Virus record (IMG/VR): IMGVR_UViG_3300029305_011675
Strand: one strand, 5' to 3'
Origin: a virus
Taxonomy: Duplodnaviria; Heunggongvirae; Uroviricota; Caudoviricetes
Length of the DNA: 40,168 nucleotides
In this document: piece after piece, positions 7,729-35,406 of the stretch
Layout of the letters: the number at the start of each line of letters is the position of its first letter
Position numbering within the stretch: the first letter of the stretch is position 1
The notes under the pieces: generated by a model
What the model saw: only the letters and a program-made list of their open reading frames with translations
The model's database searches: none
What the model was told of the DNA's origin: nothing
Translations under genes and position numbers: made by a program

Positions 7729-8664
7729 TTATCTTAACTTTGTGCGAACCACTTTGCCGATGCCATACTCATAAAACATACTATAAAAATCTCCGTCATA
7801 TGTGCACTCAAATAATTCGCCGTAAATATCATCATTTTCTTCTGAAGGATTTCTATCGCCAAAACGATATATAAAACCATTCTCCGAAATAATAGGAATA
7901 CAAATGTTTCGTGCTCGTTTTAGTTGTCCATCATCCATAGAAATATCGTTACAAATTACATAATCTGTATCGTCCTCAATTTCGCCTTGAAGTACAGCAC
8001 CTTTTTCTTCAATTAGACGAACAAGTTCATCATAATCATCGAAATCATCTTTTTCTCCAACAATAAGAACTTTAAGACCATTTGCTTCTTCGACATCTTC
8101 ATCAGTATCGTATTCGTCCATCGAAATCGACAACATATAACCATTCTTGGCAGTTACATCTTGAAGATGAATAACTTCGCCCTCGAAACCAGTATTGAGT
8201 TCGATATTAGCATCTTCAATGGATGCATCCATTTCATCAAAACAAGACAATTCATTTTCTAATGTTTCTCTATCCCAATGTTCAACATCGTCCATATCGA
8301 ACTTAATAACGCCTTTCTCAACAAGTAACTTCAAAAATGCAATTACGAAATCAGAGTATTCATCAAGTTCTTTTGCAGGATATACAGATTCAACTTCACA
8401 CAGAATAGTTTCCACAATCCAACTGGAAATAGATGATGCCTCGTCTGGTGTTGCAATCCAATCAGCAATGTCGTCATCATACAAATTCATCTTTTCTCCT
8501 GTTGGTAAAACAATTTCCATACCATCGTTAAATTCTCCATCGTCAGAATTTTCAATTTTCACTCCCAACGATATTAGAAAATTGTACAGTTCTGGATTTT
8601 TAACATTAAATACGAGAAAACTCGAACTGGAACTATTCGTAACAAAACCGCTTCTAAACTTCAT
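7729..8664 (-). CDS. Acidic protein with N-terminal GFVTNSSSSSF motif and C-terminal BRCT domain
   Basis: Begins MKFRSGFVTNSSSSSF. C-terminal LKVLIVGE...ELVRLIEEKGA...TDYVICND...ARNICIPIISE resembles the NAD-ligase-type BRCT domain. Confidence 0.7.
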   Translation of the reverse strand: MKFRSGFVTNSSSSSFLVFNVKNPELYNFLISLGVKIENSDDGEFNDGMEIVLPTGEKMNLYDDDIADWIATPDEASSISSWIVETILCEVESVYPAKELDEYSDFVIAFLKLLVEKGVIKFDMDDVEHWDRETLENELSCFDEMDASIEDANIELNTGFEGEVIHLQDVTAKNGYMLSISMDEYDTDEDVEEANGLKVLIVGEKDDFDDYDELVRLIEEKGAVLQGEIEDDTDYVICNDISMDDGQLKRARNICIPIISENGFIYRFGDRNPSEENDDIYGELFECTYDGDFYSMFYEYGIGKVVRTKLR

Positions 8665-28818: not shown

Positions 28819-29418
28819 ATGAAAGAACCTATTTTAGTGAAGGTCATTGCACCTTCCGCAAAAATTGCTTTTGACAAAGCAAAGCGTGAAGCGATAAAAA
28901 TGTATGGCAAAAATCCGTTTTCTGGTACAATCGCTACTTGTACTATGGGTACCTGTCAGATGGAATTTGACAGATATCTTAAGTACAACGACAGCAAGGC
29001 CATGCGCCTGATTAAAGAACTCGGATATGGTGATGACAATGTCGCTCACTTTATCAACATGGGTCGTGTACATTACCGCATTATCCATGTTAAGCGAGAT
29101 GTGCATCAGTATGATGCCGTGTATCGTCAGCATTACATTGTAACGGACCTCGATGGTAAGGTTCTCGAACCTGCCGCTGACCACACTTTTGAATTCAAGG
29201 GTCAGGCAGACGAAAAGGCTCTGTCTTATGTCCTTTTGGGCGAAGAAGTTATGGTTAGAAAGGCAATGGTCATCCTTTCTGGTGGAGATGTAGTTACTAC
29301 TTTCTCCAATGTTGCCACGAAGGAAACCCAACCTACTGAACCTGCATTCAGAAAAACAGAAGTTGATAATTACTTCCCTGAATACGAGTTTTGGTTCTTT
29401 GCAAATGTAATCAAGTAA
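28819..29418 (+). CDS. Hypothetical protein
   Basis: AAGGAGG RBS; 199 aa; terminator at 29423-29464. Confidence 0.75.
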   Translation: MKEPILVKVIAPSAKIAFDKAKREAIKMYGKNPFSGTIATCTMGTCQMEFDRYLKYNDSKAMRLIKELGYGDDNVAHFINMGRVHYRIIHVKRDVHQYDAVYRQHYIVTDLDGKVLEPAADHTFEFKGQADEKALSYVLLGEEVMVRKAMVILSGGDVVTTFSNVATKETQPTEPAFRKTEVDNYFPEYEFWFFANVIK

Positions 29419-29534
29419 CCCCAAAAAAGAAACCTCCGCCACAAGCGGGGGTTTCGTCTTTTCTTGAAAAAAATACCCCATATGATATAATTTTTATAGG
29501 TTTATTTACAGTTTTTATAAAGGAGGAATACAAA

Positions 29535-31673
29535 ATGAAAAAACCTAAAATTGCACCATTTGACAGTTCTCATCCCATCTATGATGAAATGTTGAATTGG
29601 TACAGAAAGCACTTCCACTTTCAGGGTGTTTATACTTCTTCGTATAGTGGAAAAGCACACTGTGCTTCTTGTGGTTGGACAGGAGCATATAGTGAATTCG
29701 AAAAAGCACGATACAGTTGCCCTATTTGCAATGCCGCAGAAACCAAGAATGCCTATATGTACTCTTCGGAGTCTTATAAGGGAACACTGATTATCGACAA
29801 GAGAGATGGAGTAATTATTTTCCGTTTTATTGGTTTTGAATACCATGTAAACGAAAATGGTGAAGATTTCTTTGCAGAAGAAATGTATCGTATTTATACC
29901 GACAAGGTTGATTACGAGATTTACAAGTTGTCTGACGGTAAGACTCTCAAAAAGCATGCAAGTGCAGAAATGGATTATAATCGCTATTTCAAAGATATGG
30001 ATGTTTACGAGCATCATAATTATGAAGCAAATGTCTGTAGCGATGATTTCATCAAAACTCTTGCCATTCTTGATGAAGACACGATTCTTGAAAATGTATT
30101 TAAGGACATAGCAAAAAATGCAGCAAAAAACTCTGTTGCATATACTTGTCCCGTTTTCAACAAACCTCCTCTTACCGAAGATTTTCTTTTGAAAACCAAC
30201 TATAAAAACATCTCCAAAATCATACACCATGTTGAAAAACAAAACATCGGCAATGCCGCTGTTTACAATGCATGGTGTGGCAAATGCGGTAAATTTGCTA
30301 CTGCAACTTTTCCTGCAAGTTACACGTCTCCCCGTGTAGATTTGTCCTGCGATTGTGCTATCGGTTCAGTTTATGTTGGAACAAACCGCTATGAGGTAGT
30401 TACCAATGGAGGCATGAATGTGTATATCGATGTGCAGTTTGAAAATGATTGCACGGTATTGAGATACACAAATTTCAGCATTATCTCTTCCCTTGTTAAT
30501 CAGGCGTTCATCCCTTCGTTCGATGCGAAGACAGAATTGTCTGCAAAAATTGAGCAAATTTATTATGTTTGTTGCTTTGCCGATGGTAAAGTAGCAGTAT
30601 TTAACGAAAACTATGAACCTCTCACTCCGTTTGAAGTTGAGAATACGGTTTTTGTTGAATCTGTTGCTAATTCCGATATCGAGCAAATCCTCGAAAATGA
30701 TAACTTTACCAAGAACATTGGGTTTGTAGATTATGCGAAGATGAATGACAATTTCTCTCTTCAGTACTTCTTCGGATGTATGAAGACAGAACTCGTTAAA
30801 GAATTGGTTGCTTGCAACCTCCATTCTCTCATTTTCGATATGGCGAGACCGAGTTCGGCAAAACTCCCCGTTTATTTGCAGAAAAACAACGGTAAGTTTA
30901 CCGCAAATATGTTTACACCAGAGCAGATTGAAGACTTTGCACTTCATTATGTAATGGTTGACTACTTTGTTGGTTTTATGCAGATTTTCAAAAAGGATAT
31001 CACTATCCTTTACGGAGATTATTGTGCTCTGTCTGATGTTGCTGGAAAGAACTCCATTGCAGAAATCTATCGTCGAATCCCCGACATTCGCTTTGATAAG
31101 GCATATAACTATATTGCATATCTCAATGGCGAAGAAGCACTCTCTCCTGTTGAAAGCATTCCTTTGTGGTGTGGATACCTCAATACCGCAAAGAACTTGA
31201 AGTTGGACCTCACAAAAGATGCCGTTTGCTTCCCGAAGTCCTTAAAAATGACTTCCGATGTTTTAAGCAGAACCCTTCGTGAAAGAAATCTTTCTGAACA
31301 AGAAATTGAAGAGTATGCAGAAAATGCTAAAAAGGCAAATGTGCATTACGAAGACGAAAGATGGTGTATCAAAACCGTTGAAAACATTGATGAATTCATT
31401 AAGCACAAAAATGCTCTTATGAATTCACAGGCACTCTATTACCACAATGTTGTCAATCGAATTTCTCTCGTTGTCTACGACAAAAGAAGAGATTGCATCA
31501 AGTATTTGATTGACCTCGATGGAGAGTTCGTTGACGATACACTCGCATCTGCCAAACTGATTCAGTTTTATGCTTTCGGAAATACAGCACTGCATGGCCG
31601 TAATAATTATTACAGAATTGTAAAAGCAAATAGTGCCCTTTCTGCTGTATTTAAGAAGTACAAAATCAACTAA
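29535..31673 (+). CDS. PcfJ-like domain protein with N-terminal zinc-ribbon motifs
   Basis: AAGGAGG RBS; CASC/CPIC and CGKC motifs; WCGYLNTAKNLKLDL...FPKSL resembles the PcfJ signature (divergent). Confidence 0.6.
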   Translation: MKKPKIAPFDSSHPIYDEMLNWYRKHFHFQGVYTSSYSGKAHCASCGWTGAYSEFEKARYSCPICNAAETKNAYMYSSESYKGTLIIDKRDGVIIFRFIGFEYHVNENGEDFFAEEMYRIYTDKVDYEIYKLSDGKTLKKHASAEMDYNRYFKDMDVYEHHNYEANVCSDDFIKTLAILDEDTILENVFKDIAKNAAKNSVAYTCPVFNKPPLTEDFLLKTNYKNISKIIHHVEKQNIGNAAVYNAWCGKCGKFATATFPASYTSPRVDLSCDCAIGSVYVGTNRYEVVTNGGMNVYIDVQFENDCTVLRYTNFSIISSLVNQAFIPSFDAKTELSAKIEQIYYVCCFADGKVAVFNENYEPLTPFEVENTVFVESVANSDIEQILENDNFTKNIGFVDYAKMNDNFSLQYFFGCMKTELVKELVACNLHSLIFDMARPSSAKLPVYLQKNNGKFTANMFTPEQIEDFALHYVMVDYFVGFMQIFKKDITILYGDYCALSDVAGKNSIAEIYRRIPDIRFDKAYNYIAYLNGEEALSPVESIPLWCGYLNTAKNLKLDLTKDAVCFPKSLKMTSDVLSRTLRERNLSEQEIEEYAENAKKANVHYEDERWCIKTVENIDEFIKHKNALMNSQALYYHNVVNRISLVVYDKRRDCIKYLIDLDGEFVDDTLASAKLIQFYAFGNTALHGRNNYYRIVKANSALSAVFKKYKIN

Positions 31674-31724
31674 AGCAGAGGGATTCGACTTGTTCGAATC
31701 CCTTTACTTTTTCTCAAAAAACAG

Positions 31725-31753
31725 TTGACATTGAAAGTGATTTATGGTATAAT
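31725..31753 (+). promoter_or_regulatory. sigmaA promoter TTGACA-17-TATAAT
   Basis: ttgaca ttgaaagtgatttatgg tataat; drives the radical SAM operon. Confidence 0.8.
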
Positions 31754-31781
31754 AATAGTAACAAATAAAGGAGGAAATACT

Positions 31782-33131
31782 ATGATTAAGAAGTATTTTG
31801 ATAAGAAAAATCGCTTTGGAGAAATGTTTAATACCGTAAATGGATTTTACTTCCGTACAGGTGTCCTTGATGCAAATGGCAAGGATACTGGAGTAGACCC
31901 CTTTATGAGAGACTTCCCTGCACTAATTGACATCGGTGTAATGGGACACTGTGTACATGGTGCATCTGGTCTTTGTGCAAAGTCTGGTGTTCAGTGTTAC
32001 CAGAACGGTCTTAAGACTTACGAACCCAATATGTCTCTCGATAACTTTAAGAAAATTGTTGACGAGTGCAAGGATAAGTGCTTCCAGTTTGCACTTGGTG
32101 GTCGTGGAGATGTTGACCAGCACGAGAACTTTGAAGAAATTCTTCGTTATTGTGCGGAAAATCACATCGTTCCCAACTTCACCACATCTGGTCTTGGTAT
32201 GACCAAAGAAATCGCACAGACTTGCAAGACTTACTGTGGTGCAGTTGCCGTAAGTATGTATTCTCGTCTCGATAATATCGTTCCCGATATTGCTCGCAGA
32301 AAGTTGACTGATGGTAGCAAGAGAGTTTATCGTTCTGTTGACGATATTCCTGTTCTGTTTACCTTCAACAATGAAAATAAGGAATGTTATTGGGATGCTC
32401 CCAACTACATCATCAACGGTGAGACATACGAGTGGGATGAACTTCATCACATTGTATTCTCCGATGAAGAGCAGGAGTACGAATATTTCCGAATTTTCAA
32501 CGAAAAGAACTCTATCGCAAAGAACGACATCCCCAATTACACTATCAATGCAGTTAATATGCTTATTGATGCTGGTGTAACTACCAACATTCACTATGTA
32601 ATTGGCAACAACACCATTGATGAGGCAATCGCAAGATTGAAGTACAATGGTTTTCCGACTGGAATCAATGCAGTTATTTTCCTGCTCCACAAACCTGTTG
32701 GTCTTGGCAAGGAAGATAATGTCCTTGACATCAATGATGTCAGAGTAAAGGAATTTTTCAACCTTATCGATACTGGAAAGTTCCCTTTCCAGATTGGTTT
32801 TGATAGTTGCACAGTTCCTGGCATTATCAACTGCACAAAGAACATCGCAGGCGAAAGCATTGACAGTTGTGAGGGCGGTCGCTTCTCTATGTATATCACT
32901 TCCGATATGAAAGCACTTCCTTGCTCTTTTGACAATCAGGACATGAAGTGGGCAGTTGATATTTCCAACGGGCTCATCGAAGATGCTTGGAATAGCGACA
33001 GTTTCAATGATTTTAGAAGTCACTTTTTGAACTCTTGTCCTAATTGCCCGAACAGAACATCTTGTTACGGTGGTTGCCCGATTCGCAGACAGACCGTTTT
33101 GTGTAATCGTCAGACAAAAGAATTGAATTAA
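31782..33131 (+). CDS. Radical SAM/SPASM-domain protein with an expanded cysteine motif
   Basis: CVHGASGLCAKSGVQC, ALGGRGD, FTTSG, VAVS. SPASM-like CEGGRFSMYI..LPCSF..CPNC...CYGGC. Confidence 0.85.
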   Translation: MIKKYFDKKNRFGEMFNTVNGFYFRTGVLDANGKDTGVDPFMRDFPALIDIGVMGHCVHGASGLCAKSGVQCYQNGLKTYEPNMSLDNFKKIVDECKDKCFQFALGGRGDVDQHENFEEILRYCAENHIVPNFTTSGLGMTKEIAQTCKTYCGAVAVSMYSRLDNIVPDIARRKLTDGSKRVYRSVDDIPVLFTFNNENKECYWDAPNYIINGETYEWDELHHIVFSDEEQEYEYFRIFNEKNSIAKNDIPNYTINAVNMLIDAGVTTNIHYVIGNNTIDEAIARLKYNGFPTGINAVIFLLHKPVGLGKEDNVLDINDVRVKEFFNLIDTGKFPFQIGFDSCTVPGIINCTKNIAGESIDSCEGGRFSMYITSDMKALPCSFDNQDMKWAVDISNGLIEDAWNSDSFNDFRSHFLNSCPNCPNRTSCYGGCPIRRQTVLCNRQTKELN

Positions 33132-33142
33132 GAGGTGATATT

Positions 33143-33565
33143 ATGATTGTTGGAAGAGATTGTTTTTATAAAAATTGTCCCACCAAAGGAGACGAATACT
33201 ACTTCGTCTCCGATGGTAAAATTCAGAAGCAAAACTGGGAAGATGCGCCTGTCGATATGATTAGATGGCGAACAGGTAATTGTTTCAAGACTGGTGCTGA
33301 TGCAATTTTTGCATTCAATAAGTCGATTGTAATTGCAAAGTTAAAGTGCTTCGCAGATGTGAATAATGGTGAAATTTCTTGGAAAAAGAACACAGAAAAG
33401 TTTTATCTGCGATATAAGCGAAACATCGATGCAATCGAAGTGGTTGCTTGTGTGTATGAACCAGTCGGCGATATTGTGTTCTCCTCAAAAGAAATCGCAG
33501 AACAAGCGATTATTGAAGTTGGACAGGAAAATCTGAAAAAATATTATTTTGGACAGGAGGAATAA
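33143..33565 (+). CDS. Hypothetical protein (phage-type)
   Basis: GAGGTG RBS; 140 aa; operonic with the radical SAM gene. Confidence 0.75.
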   Translation: MIVGRDCFYKNCPTKGDEYYFVSDGKIQKQNWEDAPVDMIRWRTGNCFKTGADAIFAFNKSIVIAKLKCFADVNNGEISWKKNTEKFYLRYKRNIDAIEVVACVYEPVGDIVFSSKEIAEQAIIEVGQENLKKYYFGQEE

Positions 33566-33567
33566 CT

Positions 33568-34272
33568 GTGAAAATTAGATATGGTTTTGTAACAAACAGT
33601 TCGAGTTCTTCTTTCATTATCAAAAAGAAGGACAATTTCAATTCGGTCGAAGATGTTTATCAAACCGTAAAACAACTGTATGTTGAATTCAAAAATGTAA
33701 TTGACAATGCAGTAAATGCTTGCAAAGATAATCCCAAATATACTATCGTAAGAGATAAGGACGACAACAATAAGGTTGTTCACATTACTCTCACGAAAGA
33801 GAAAGGTTATGATTGGTTGACCGAAACCGATGCTTTTGAAGCAGAATTCGGAATTGGTCTTCTCGATTATTTGGGTTATAACCTTACTTGGATGGAGACT
33901 TGCCCCACCTATCAAGACTTCTTAAAGAAGTTTGAAGGTGAATATGGTCCTTTTAGAATTCTCGATTTCTCAAAACCAGAAGATAGAGATTCTGATGAGG
34001 AAGAAAGTCTTATGAGCATCCTTTGCTGGTATATGCCTTGCTATGACGACAACAGCAGAAATTGCAACACTTGTAGGTACACCAAGTATTGCGACTTTAA
34101 TAAGAAGTGTCCTGACCTAATCGATAAGGTTAAAGATGCAAACGGTGATATCGATGTTGTGTTTGAAGTCTTTGGACAGTTCTGTGTTGCAAGTGAGTGC
34201 GGTTATATTCCCGATTATGTTGTGCAGAGGTTGTCTGGTTTGTCAACTTTTGCCTGCAATCACATGGGTTAA
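33568..34272 (+). CDS. GFVTNSSSSSF-motif protein with a cysteine cluster
   Basis: GTG start after AGGAGG. MKIRYGFVTNSSSSSF; CNTCRYTKYCDFNKKC; ends in CNHMG. Confidence 0.75.
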   Translation: MKIRYGFVTNSSSSSFIIKKKDNFNSVEDVYQTVKQLYVEFKNVIDNAVNACKDNPKYTIVRDKDDNNKVVHITLTKEKGYDWLTETDAFEAEFGIGLLDYLGYNLTWMETCPTYQDFLKKFEGEYGPFRILDFSKPEDRDSDEEESLMSILCWYMPCYDDNSRNCNTCRYTKYCDFNKKCPDLIDKVKDANGDIDVVFEVFGQFCVASECGYIPDYVVQRLSGLSTFACNHMG

Positions 34273-34290
34273 TCTGAAAGGAGAAAAGAT

Positions 34291-34689
34291 ATGAAATTTA
34301 GAAAAGGTTTTGTTACCAACAGTTCGAGTTCATCTTTTATCGTTGCTGTAAAGGACGACGGTTCTGAAACTCTAAATGCTTTTATGAAGGCATTTGTGGA
34401 TTCGGAAGATTACAATGAAACTCGCAAGGGTCATTCGTATAAGACAAAGGAAGAACTCGACAAGTATTATGTTGAAAATTTCAAGTCTTCTCGTTGTAAG
34501 ACTCTTGAAGAAATTCTCGAAGACGATGAATATCTCGAAGAACAGTACAACAAGGAACTGGAGTGCATCGAAAAAGGCTTCGTCATTCTCACAAAGGATA
34601 TCGGATATGGCGACGATGGTTTGACCTCGTTTGTTTCCATTTTCGCTGAATCTCTTGGAGAAAATGCAATCTTGTTCGATACTGACTAA
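34291..34689 (+). CDS. GFVTNSSSSSF-motif protein
   Basis: AAGGAG RBS; MKFRKGFVTNSSSSSF; terminator at 34697-34731. Confidence 0.75.
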   Translation: MKFRKGFVTNSSSSSFIVAVKDDGSETLNAFMKAFVDSEDYNETRKGHSYKTKEELDKYYVENFKSSRCKTLEEILEDDEYLEEQYNKELECIEKGFVILTKDIGYGDDGLTSFVSIFAESLGENAILFDTD

Positions 34690-34809
34690 AAGTAATAAGA
34701 AATGGTTTCCGCAAGGAAACCGTTTCTTTTCTTGAGAAAAAACAAAGATTATTTTAAAATCTTCACAGACTTTCATTTAAACAAAAATTCTAAAAGGAGG
34801 AATGTAATT

Positions 34810-35406
34810 ATGTGTAAAGAAAGAAAGTCCCTTGCCCTCGATGTAGATGGCGTATTGATGGAATGTTACCCGCCTATCAATGCACGAATTATCGCAAAGT
34901 TCGATATGCCCGAAGATTTCCGTATCCAGCGAGTAGTAAGAAGTTGGAATATGATGGAACTTCCCGAAGAAGTTCGTCGTTTCGCTCTTGACTGCATGGG
35001 AGATGCAGAAATTGTTGAGCAGTACACTTTCAAGAAAGGTAGTTTGAAGTTCGTTAAGGAACTCTATGACTGCATTACCAGTCATGGTGGTGAATTCATC
35101 TTCAACACTCACTGCTTCAATCAGGCAGTTGGCGATGTTCGCCGTAAGCAGTTGGAAACCATTTCCGCAAAACTCGGCATTTGTCCTACCTACAACATTT
35201 CTGTTGGTAAGGTAAAGGTCAATGCTGAAACCGACATCATCATTGATGACCACATGGGGAATCTGGATGCTTCTGTTGCCGACACCAAGATTCTTTTCTC
35301 TATGTTCCATAATAGAGATTTGAAGGTCGGAGATGCTTTCAGAAGTAACGATTACAATGCAATCGTTAAACACGTTAAGGAGGTAGTCTGCTGTGAAGAA
35401 TGTTAA
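34810..35406 (+). CDS. HAD-superfamily 5'(3')-deoxyribonucleotidase-like phosphatase
   Basis: LDVDGVL motif I; IIIDDH; AAGGAGG RBS. Confidence 0.7.
   Translation: MCKERKSLALDVDGVLMECYPPINARIIAKFDMPEDFRIQRVVRSWNMMELPEEVRRFALDCMGDAEIVEQYTFKKGSLKFVKELYDCITSHGGEFIFNTHCFNQAVGDVRRKQLETISAKLGICPTYNISVGKVKVNAETDIIIDDHMGNLDASVADTKILFSMFHNRDLKVGDAFRSNDYNAIVKHVKEVVCCEEC

Follow-up and report, generated by a model that had tools for sequence, protein, structure and literature searches.

The 40,168-nucleotide stretch of DNA from a giant gut phage (Caudoviricetes) analysed here (IMG/VR record IMGVR_UViG_3300029305_011675; hereafter the window) encodes a radical S-adenosylmethionine (SAM) enzyme with a SPASM domain and three proteins, p234, p132 and p311, that all begin with the same 16-residue sequence. 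This sequence is a strictly N-terminal, modular tag, and it is coupled to the enzyme in both directions: tagged genes occur with the enzyme gene and enzyme genes occur with tagged ones, in hundreds of phages as well as in bacteria, where the pair sits in NLR-like immune operons. We infer that the enzyme probably binds the tag directly and modifies it on whole proteins. An earlier note on this DNA had interpreted the motif as a tag for folded proteins that the SPASM enzyme of the same unit recognizes or processes, and the two-way genomic coupling supports this proposal.

The tag and its companion gene

Two pattern scans were carried out, one of IMG/VR with the back-translated motif (64 loci on 42 contigs, mostly phage genomes of 85–250 kb) and one of a single genome per prokaryotic species (29 loci). 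From 265 distinct tagged proteins pooled from phage and bacterial loci we obtained the consensus M1 K2 [IVFLY]3 R4 x5 [D/G]6 F7 V8 T9 N10 S11 S12 S13 [S/T]14 S15 [F/Y]16. Positions K2, F7, V8, T9, N10 and S11–13 are conserved at 96–100% in these proteins, whereas the enzymes are only 26–70% identical. The position of the tag is constant, with a start codon lying exactly six codons before F7 in 262 of the 265 proteins. Every serine position of the tag is encoded by both AGY and TCN codons, indicating selection on the peptide and not on the DNA; a DNA microsatellite as the origin of the tag is ruled out by this codon usage. With the pattern reversed as a control, none of five complete phage genomes showed a match, versus 1–5 real matches in each, which excludes chance. 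The window itself holds exactly three copies of the motif. A six-frame scan found MK(I/F)RxGFVTNSSSSSF on p234, p132 and p311, as previously described, with the serine runs in the mixed codons quoted before (AGT TCG AGT TCT TCT; AGT TCG AGT TCA TCT; AGT TCC AGT TCG AGT), and all three tags begin 7–9 nt 3' of a good ribosome-binding site (RBS).

The tag is widespread. A profile search of 1.84 billion representative proteins retrieved 23,390 clusters at E<=0.001, of which 686 were at E<=1e-10; these tagged clusters, about 23,000, are defined at 50% identity. Among the 150 best matches, 142 align from residue 1, and the remainder are alternative starts or open reading frames (ORFs) joining two modules. 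As separate observations, the ORFs P0002, P0007, P0012 and P0148 join two modules, in some cases two tagged ones, and represent either fusions or gene calling across tight junctions; in the metagenomic ORF P0148 a homologue of p140, an untagged protein of the window, is fused in frame to a p234-like protein, so that the tag is internal at residue 144.

The three tagged proteins of the window thus belong to a very large, unannotated superfamily whose defining feature is a portable tag instead of a domain. No Pfam domain was found in 40 tagged representatives except for the BRCT domain of p311, no NCBIfam or PADLOC model matched tagged proteins, and their source annotations read 'hypothetical'. 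In the PHROGs database, the only matches were to phrog_7397, weakly and at the N-terminus (E 2e-4 to 8e-4), and to the BRCT domain in p311. A tblastn search with p234 against 50,697 GenBank phage records gave no match, and a word-based homologue search with p132 returned only its own cluster. Literature searches for the motif string and for phage SPASM systems turned up no paper on the tag or on the phage module. A resemblance to glycyl-radical 'RxGF' sites was considered and dropped, since position 6 is Asp in about half of the tags.

The coupling to the enzyme was followed from both sides. Starting from the tag, the enzyme is present on 36 of the 42 tag-bearing viral contigs, and the six contigs without it are fragments, 2–79% complete; all six contigs that are at least 90% complete carry tag and enzyme. 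In bacterial genomes, which represent at least six phyla, the enzyme gene is directly adjacent at 28 of the 29 tag loci, often with overlapping stop and start codons, and the exception is a locus of 2.6 kb. Starting from the enzyme, we found 229 relatives in IMG/VR and checked the best 80 loci for tagged ORFs: 74 have one to eight of them within 6 kb, and the other six are truncated on the relevant side. Three tagged representatives, picked unsystematically among the 150 listed and all situated on ~4-kb contigs, are in line with this (two of the three adjoin the enzyme). The earlier note had named motif proteins occurring widely without the enzyme as the result that would speak against its proposal, and this was not obtained in either direction; instead, profile search and co-occurrence counts gave a large family with tag and enzyme coupled in viral contigs and bacterial genomes alike. 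The great size of this family and its Avs2-like STAND context in bacteria had escaped the earlier note.

Two further features fit a single trans-acting reader per genome. Tags that are distant from the enzyme gene, namely that of p311 and those of one distal pair, are as perfect as the adjacent ones, and position 6 is uniformly D or uniformly G in 131 of 140 multi-tag loci.

The transcription unit and its radical SAM/SPASM enzyme

The features of the window that belong to the enzyme and the tagged proteins are as follows (aa, amino acids).

31725-31753, plus strand: promoter TTGACA-17-TATAAT with an extended -10 (TG); 12/12 hexamer matches, a perfect extended sigma-70-type promoter
31782-33131, plus strand: radical SAM/SPASM enzyme, 449 aa; RBS and ATG at 31782
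33143-33565, plus strand: p140, untagged, 140 aa; ORF inside the transcription unit of the enzyme
33568-34272, plus strand: p234, tagged (tag 33568-33615), 234 aa; GTG start after a GGAGG RBS, C-terminal Cys cluster ending ...CNHMG
34291-34689, plus strand: p132, tagged (tag 34291-34338), 132 aa, acidic
34704-34731, plus strand: terminator hairpin and T-tract closing the unit, GGTTTCCGCAAGGAAACC then GTTTCTTTTCTT
7729-8664, minus strand: p311, tagged (tag 8617-8664), 311 aa, acidic, with a C-terminal BRCT domain; ORF with RBS

Four tightly packed ORFs thus lie between promoter and terminator and form one unit (31725-34731), just as had been read from the sequence before. The TTG at 31725 is part of the -35 box and not the start of the enzyme, whose true start is the ATG at 31782. 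The third motif protein, p311, was likewise correctly placed; its gene lies on the minus strand, behind an RBS and 23 kb away from that of the enzyme. The BRCT domain of p311 passes the Pfam cut-off narrowly (22.0 versus 21.3 bits, E 2e-4), and its PHROG matches are to the BRCT region of NAD-ligase (E 6e-8). The earlier note had also counted the 140-aa gene in. It does lie within the unit, but it is not a conserved part of the system: in related phages the homologues of p140 are located 6–7 kb from the enzyme, and p140 was rejected as a component on these grounds.

The genes on either side are of other kinds. Upstream (29391-31673) lies the gene for a 760-aa protein that contains several CxxC pairs and, at its C-terminus, a PcfJ-like domain (PF14284, E 3e-8); this gene is closed by a separate terminator (31677-31705), which the promoter of the enzyme unit directly follows. 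Downstream, an ORF at 34702-35406 encodes an NT5C-like 5'-nucleotidase with a probable start at ATG 34810, after the RBS AAAAGGAGG; the in-frame ATG at 34702 upstream of this start falls within the terminator hairpin.

The SPASM domain of the enzyme (residues 363–439, 32868-33098) scores above the cut-offs of PF13186 (27.2 versus 21.5 bits) and TIGR04085 (28 versus 27), and the SPASM cysteines CX2CX6CX3C...C are visible in the sequence; in this subgroup, the seven cysteines of the C-terminal domain serve two auxiliary 4Fe-4S clusters. The GGE-type SAM motif is ALGGRGD (GGxGD), of which G106, G107 and G109 are invariant in 27 relatives. The putative cluster-binding triad is C57/C65/C72 (31950-31997), corresponding to the three-cysteine motif that, followed by an aromatic residue, ligates the SAM-binding 4Fe-4S cluster in this superfamily; its three cysteines and the following tyrosine are also invariant in these 27 relatives. 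The spacing within the triad, by contrast, varies. It is CX7CX6C in the window and in most phages, the canonical CX3CX2C in 18 STAND-linked bacterial copies and three phage copies, and CX5-7/CX3-8 otherwise; across the loci L001–L205 the spacings CX6CX6C, CX5CX6C, CX5CX3C and CX7CX8C were also seen, all followed by the invariant tyrosine. Such variation of the cluster-cysteine spacing within one clade is unusual for radical SAM enzymes. The window enzyme further contains an in-frame insertion of about 92 aa (32262-32537, residues ~161–252) that is absent from all 26 aligned relatives; this insertion has a predicted local distance difference test score (pLDDT) of 37–58 and no Pfam match, and is not intein-like.

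By profile comparison, the nearest solved proteins are SuiB (E 1.4e-19), SkfB, PqqE and the anaerobic sulfatase-maturating enzyme anSME (E 9e-8). The AlphaFold2 (AF2) model of the enzyme (pLDDT 82) matches SuiB, anSME, CteB and PqqE in Foldseek with probability 1.00, in line with the partial TIM-barrel fold of the superfamily, and the nearest proteins at the fold level are SuiB, anSME (E 3.5e-10), CteB, PqqE, TigE, SkfB and ChlB. The solved relatives found by profile and by fold all modify peptides or proteins. None of the curated families includes the enzyme: all equivalog models score far below their cut-offs, leaving the clade uncurated, and no XyeB or FxsB model is among the NCBIfam matches listed for the window enzyme and three bacterial relatives (for two of these, the best 25 of 42–47 matches). 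Domain searches found no recognition element of the kind known from ribosomally synthesized and post-translationally modified peptides (RiPP recognition element, RRE) and no PqqD-like domain, either in the enzyme or in its neighbours. In agreement with this, the profile alignment to SuiB starts at SuiB residue 125, after the RRE of that protein, and only about 45 residues, predicted to form a small three-stranded sheet, precede the radical SAM core of the window enzyme. Recognition of a partner must therefore be by the catalytic body.

The tagged proteins and the Avs2-like operons of bacteria

After removal of the first 20 residues, the tagged proteins (81–691 aa, median 139 among the 265, most of them 110–170 aa) separate into 38 BLAST clusters with bodies of 81–691 aa. 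These bodies form at least 11 families without detectable homology. When the 12 largest clusters were compared by hhalign with their tags removed, a single pair among 66 was related, the p132-like phage cluster and the bacterial protein m137 (E 5e-5). The earlier statement that the bodies are unrelated beyond about 20 residues consequently holds at the profile level, this one pair apart. Full-length alignments of p132 were obtained with 20 bacterial m137 proteins, and p132 is the phage counterpart of this 137-aa 'core' tagged protein of bacteria. The AF2 model of p132 (pLDDT 78) has residues 1–10 disordered and a strand at residues 13–21 that opens a small alpha/beta fold, and a fold search with this model retrieved only uncharacterised small alpha/beta proteins. 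Full-length orthologues of p234 (220–257 aa, 30–35% identity) are present in at least 25 phage loci. In Chloroflexi, a membrane helix and a protein of 300–700 aa come directly after the tag, which sets the end of the tag at residue 16. Another subfamily, found on viral contigs (L123–L202), consists of proteins of ~180–198 aa in which the tag runs into a Cys/His-rich segment, ...SSSSSY[IV]C[DE]ICG...C...H..C..H; it has a zinc-ribbon-like look and is the second largest body family, with 33 loci.

The modular nature of the tag is best seen in bacteria. The gene just upstream of m137 encodes p140b, a paralogue of m137 (112 columns, hhalign 92.9%, E 3.6e-7) that lacks exactly the tag segment, indicating that the tag is an add-on to a protein that is otherwise retained. 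The p140 protein of the window is unrelated to p140b. These comparisons bear on the idea that the motif is the first strand and the catalytic or ligand loop of one divergent small fold, in which the serine loop would bind phosphate or a nucleotide. An N-terminal strand-loop-strand with catalytic residues is common in Rossmann-like folds, the p132 model places S13–K21 as the first strand of its alpha/beta domain, and most of the family is of a suitable size, 110–170 aa. However, the first ten residues are predicted to be disordered in p132, and the bodies range up to 691 aa and include BRCT, Cys-cluster and membrane proteins, with the tag abutting the transmembrane helix in the latter. Moreover, 65 of the 66 family pairs are unrelated by profile-profile comparison, and p140b retains the fold without the loop. 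We regard a single divergent fold as very improbable.

The bacterial tag loci have a recurrent organization. At least 18 of the 29 genome loci encode, in this order, a STAND NTPase of ~900 aa, p140b, tagged m137, the enzyme and sometimes a 300-aa protein (p300), and the reading frames in these cassettes commonly overlap. The STAND proteins match the Avs2 models of PADLOC (E down to 1e-17) and NACHT. The effector at their N-terminus is, in Veillonella, Lachnospiraceae and others, a protease of the trypsin-like type, and in Veillonella the STAND gene is preceded by a gene of the metallo-beta-lactamase (MBL) fold that matches the Avs1a and LmuA models. On Agrobacterium pAt (L205), a SMEK domain replaces the protease as the STAND effector. 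Pairs of trypsin and MBL effectors on Avs2 were recently described (PMC12799240; bioRxiv 2025.09.03.673762; bioRxiv 2026.08.25.746987); the last of these studies contains no mention of radical SAM accessory genes, and neither does a preprint surveying STAND NTPase sensors. Where the optional 300-aa protein is present in the bacterial cassette (L090–L119, L205), its C-terminus is M1E1E6-like. The cassette on the Veillonella parvula chromosome (L119:5648-12349) is situated in an island with SUKH/SMI1, DMP19, ankyrin, Macro and SIR2 genes.

The presence of the pair in Avs2-like STAND operons suggests that tagged proteins are probably players in phage-host conflict. In bacteria, the enzyme, the tagged protein and its tag-less paralogue would form an accessory module of Avs2-like STAND immune sensors. 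In phages, the module consists of the enzyme and tagged proteins only: none of the phage loci, including that of the window, has a STAND gene, protease, p140b or p300 in the 6 kb on either side of the enzyme. For this reason, the tag was rejected as a general substrate of the trypsin-like STAND domain, which is lacking in phages and in Agrobacterium.

The same comparison is informative about another explanation, in which the tag is a targeting, stability or degradation signal for other machinery, such as a protease, a chaperone or virion packaging, and is linked to the enzyme through shared regulation or hitch-hiking. A short, strictly N-terminal and predictedly flexible sequence is what degrons and capsid-targeting sequences look like, and the protease on the STAND protein of many bacterial cassettes could act on K2 and R4, which are potential tryptic sites. 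Nevertheless, no gene other than that of the enzyme accompanies the tag throughout the phages and six bacterial phyla. The phage loci are devoid of STAND, protease, p140b and p300 genes, Agrobacterium has SMEK in place of the protease, and there is no virion into which the products of bacterial chromosomal cassettes could be packaged. A signal for other machinery is thus improbable.

The only experimentally tested system of this general shape is KpAvs2-Avap1-Avap2 of Klebsiella pneumoniae (Bechon et al. 2024, PMC11564622), which combines an Avs2-type STAND protein with a radical SAM protein and a small accessory protein. Avap2 was shown to bind the STAND sensor. The radical SAM protein Avap1 is required for defence against some phages but dispensable against one, and the roles of Avap1 and Avap2 were left open (PMC11564622). 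Bacterial relatives of the window enzyme are located in the same kind of operon, the comparison being one of operon shape. Unlike the Klebsiella system, the window is from a phage without a STAND gene, and an N-terminal tag is not mentioned in PMC11564622. Avap2 was assigned to DUF6375 by HHpred (PMC11564622). A search for this family (PF19902) on the tagged proteins and p140b of 11 cassette-bearing genomes or records gave no match at E up to 10, at a sensitivity below that of HHpred; 401 genomes of one phylum also contained no match to PF19902. Matches on Klebsiella plasmids turned out to be PqqE.

Possible roles of enzyme and tag

Several known systems share parts of this arrangement. One with a parallel conflict-system setting is the FxSxx-COOH/FxsB module of VMAP-ternary conflict systems, predicted by Kaur, Burroughs, Iyer and Aravind in 2020 (PMC7159879, section 24), where a radical SAM/SPASM enzyme and fast-diverging small proteins with a common short terminal motif rich in F and S are encoded beside a STAND-type AP-ATPase effector. 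In that case, however, a zincin peptidase releases the motif from the C-terminus, whereas the tag described here is strictly N-terminal, and no metallopeptidase was found among the conserved neighbours of the bacterial tag loci. The bodies here are also larger, up to 691 aa, and phages carry the module alone.

The earlier note had drawn on anSME and on the maturases of RiPPs. Both hold as analogies of logic, but the enzyme belongs to neither family. Like the window enzyme, anSME (PDB 4K36–4K39) is a SPASM enzyme without an RRE, and it modifies Ser or Cys in a short signature of a full-length protein. The sulfatase signature C/S-x-P/A-x-R is nevertheless missing from the tag, sequence identity is about 15%, and the anSME model TIGR03942 does not match the window enzyme and gives 15.4 bits for a bacterial relative, versus 349.45. 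SuiB/StrB and other RiPP SPASM enzymes (5V1Q; SkfB 6EFN; PqqE 6C8V; CteB 5WGG) are the closest solved relatives, and tandem arrays of substrate paralogues beside the enzyme resemble the precursor arrays of RiPPs. Here, however, the conserved part is an N-terminal 16-mer and the variable part is a folded protein instead of a short core peptide, with no RRE, leader peptidase or exporter. The partners are not short leader/core precursors: they have 81–691 aa and are folded or domain-bearing, as seen in the AF2 model of p132 and in the BRCT domain. Ophion, composed of a radical SAM protein, PHP and a phosphoribosyltransferase (PRTase), was considered and is unrelated.

A different kind of parallel is offered by the internal proteins of phage T4. 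There, a short conserved N-terminal capsid-targeting sequence is borne by unrelated, fast-evolving proteins encoded in arrays; the prohead recognizes this sequence, and the prohead protease cleaves it. In the present case, by contrast, a radical SAM enzyme is the constant partner, and bacterial chromosomal immune operons contain the tag as well.

Taken together, a flexible and invariant 16-mer, a single companion gene, an enzyme of a modifying type without an RRE and perfect tags at distal sites suggest that the enzyme modifies the tag. The tag would then be the cognate handle of a dedicated radical SAM/SPASM clade. The flexible N-terminal tail of each tagged protein most likely enters the active site directly, and the 5'-deoxyadenosyl radical would install a modification within the tag. 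The chemistry can only be guessed at; candidates are an intramolecular C-C or C-O cross-link at F7/T9/N10, or oxidation or epimerisation of serine. The triad F7-V8-T9 fits the aromatic-x-X3 pattern that radical SAM/SPASM enzymes cross-link in triceptides (three-residue cyclophanes), which is a lead only. The substrates would be full-length proteins and not short peptides, following a logic like that of anSME on the sulfatase signature, and one trans-acting enzyme per genome would serve all tagged proteins, here p234, p132 and p311 and elsewhere up to eight. An intein with a LAGLIDADG homing endonuclease (PF14890, PF14528) interrupts the enzyme gene of another phage (IMGVR_UViG_3300029288_000114, L029:649-2424); inteins are typical of important phage genes, and we count this one in favour of modification by the enzyme.

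The complex that the earlier note had suggested to model was predicted from the enzyme with SAM, three 4Fe-4S clusters and p132, using custom alignments. The prediction scored 0.49 (best control 0.01), at least 30% of contacts are shared between its runs, and the partner pLDDT is at least 58. This supports the contact weakly, and the prediction is a small addition to the genomic evidence. In the benchmark of this score, 58 of 80 solved complexes and two of 110 mismatched pairs reach the mark.

Binding might also be the whole function. The tag could be a docking peptide that pairs as a beta-strand with the enzyme or with a common third partner, while the true substrate is a small molecule, a nucleic acid or a host protein. 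Co-occurrence and the weak complex score are equally explained by binding without chemistry, and the three-stranded sheet predicted with confidence at the N-terminus of the enzyme could pair with such a strand. In the Klebsiella system, too, the accessory protein binds the STAND sensor and the radical SAM protein is dispensable against one phage (PMC11564622). On the other hand, near-total invariance at 13 of the 16 positions, including five consecutive serines, exceeds what strand docking usually needs, and the closest solved relatives are without exception modifiers of peptides or proteins. If the radical SAM protein of KpAvs2 belongs to the present clade, it is also relevant that no nucleotide-type pocket and no viperin-type products are reported for it (PMC11564622). 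On balance, we consider docking without modification unlikely.

Several points weigh against modification of the tag by the enzyme. The tag contains no Cys and no known SPASM residue pair, save for the possible aromatic-x-Thr triad, which makes the reaction a guess. Given its unusual CX7CX6C spacing and the 92-aa insertion, the window enzyme is not certain to be active. A tag without the enzyme occurs on one contig of 79% completeness, and some tagged genes are found on short contigs with no enzyme nearby. Most of the sampled phage loci come from few related lineages, so that the counts overstate the number of independent observations, which amount to about six phage lineages (enzymes 39–70% identical to that of the window) plus the bacteria. 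The complex prediction is only weak as well: with a score of 0.60 or under, the mark was reached by only seven of the 80 solved complexes, yet by both mismatched pairs that passed.

A more specific version of the modification hypothesis can be put forward tentatively. The tag may mark a new class of whole-protein modification, a cross-link or a reactive carbonyl, that is used in bacterial Avs2 complexes and also to arm phage effectors. The phage enzyme would then arm up to eight unrelated effectors, which possibly mimic or jam the tagged immune component of the host.

The type of the enzyme and the logic of a maturase encoded beside its substrates are known. For the tag and the phage module, no database model and no paper in the searchable library were found, and Avap1/Avap2 are their only point of contact with experiment. 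Modification of the tag, if real, would amount to a protein modification system of wide distribution, with about 23,000 clusters at 50% identity. A tag this short could be grafted onto any protein, making the idea directly testable and the tag a potential tool for tagging. Modification would also offer a concrete idea of the substrate on which the radical SAM accessory proteins of Avs2-type sensors act, their role having been left open in PMC11564622. Within the phage-host arms race, the question arises why giant phages bring along an enzyme of their own, a counterpart of the bacterial core tagged protein and many further tagged proteins. With so large a family, so portable a tag and a presence on both sides of the phage-host conflict, the system is well worth an experiment.

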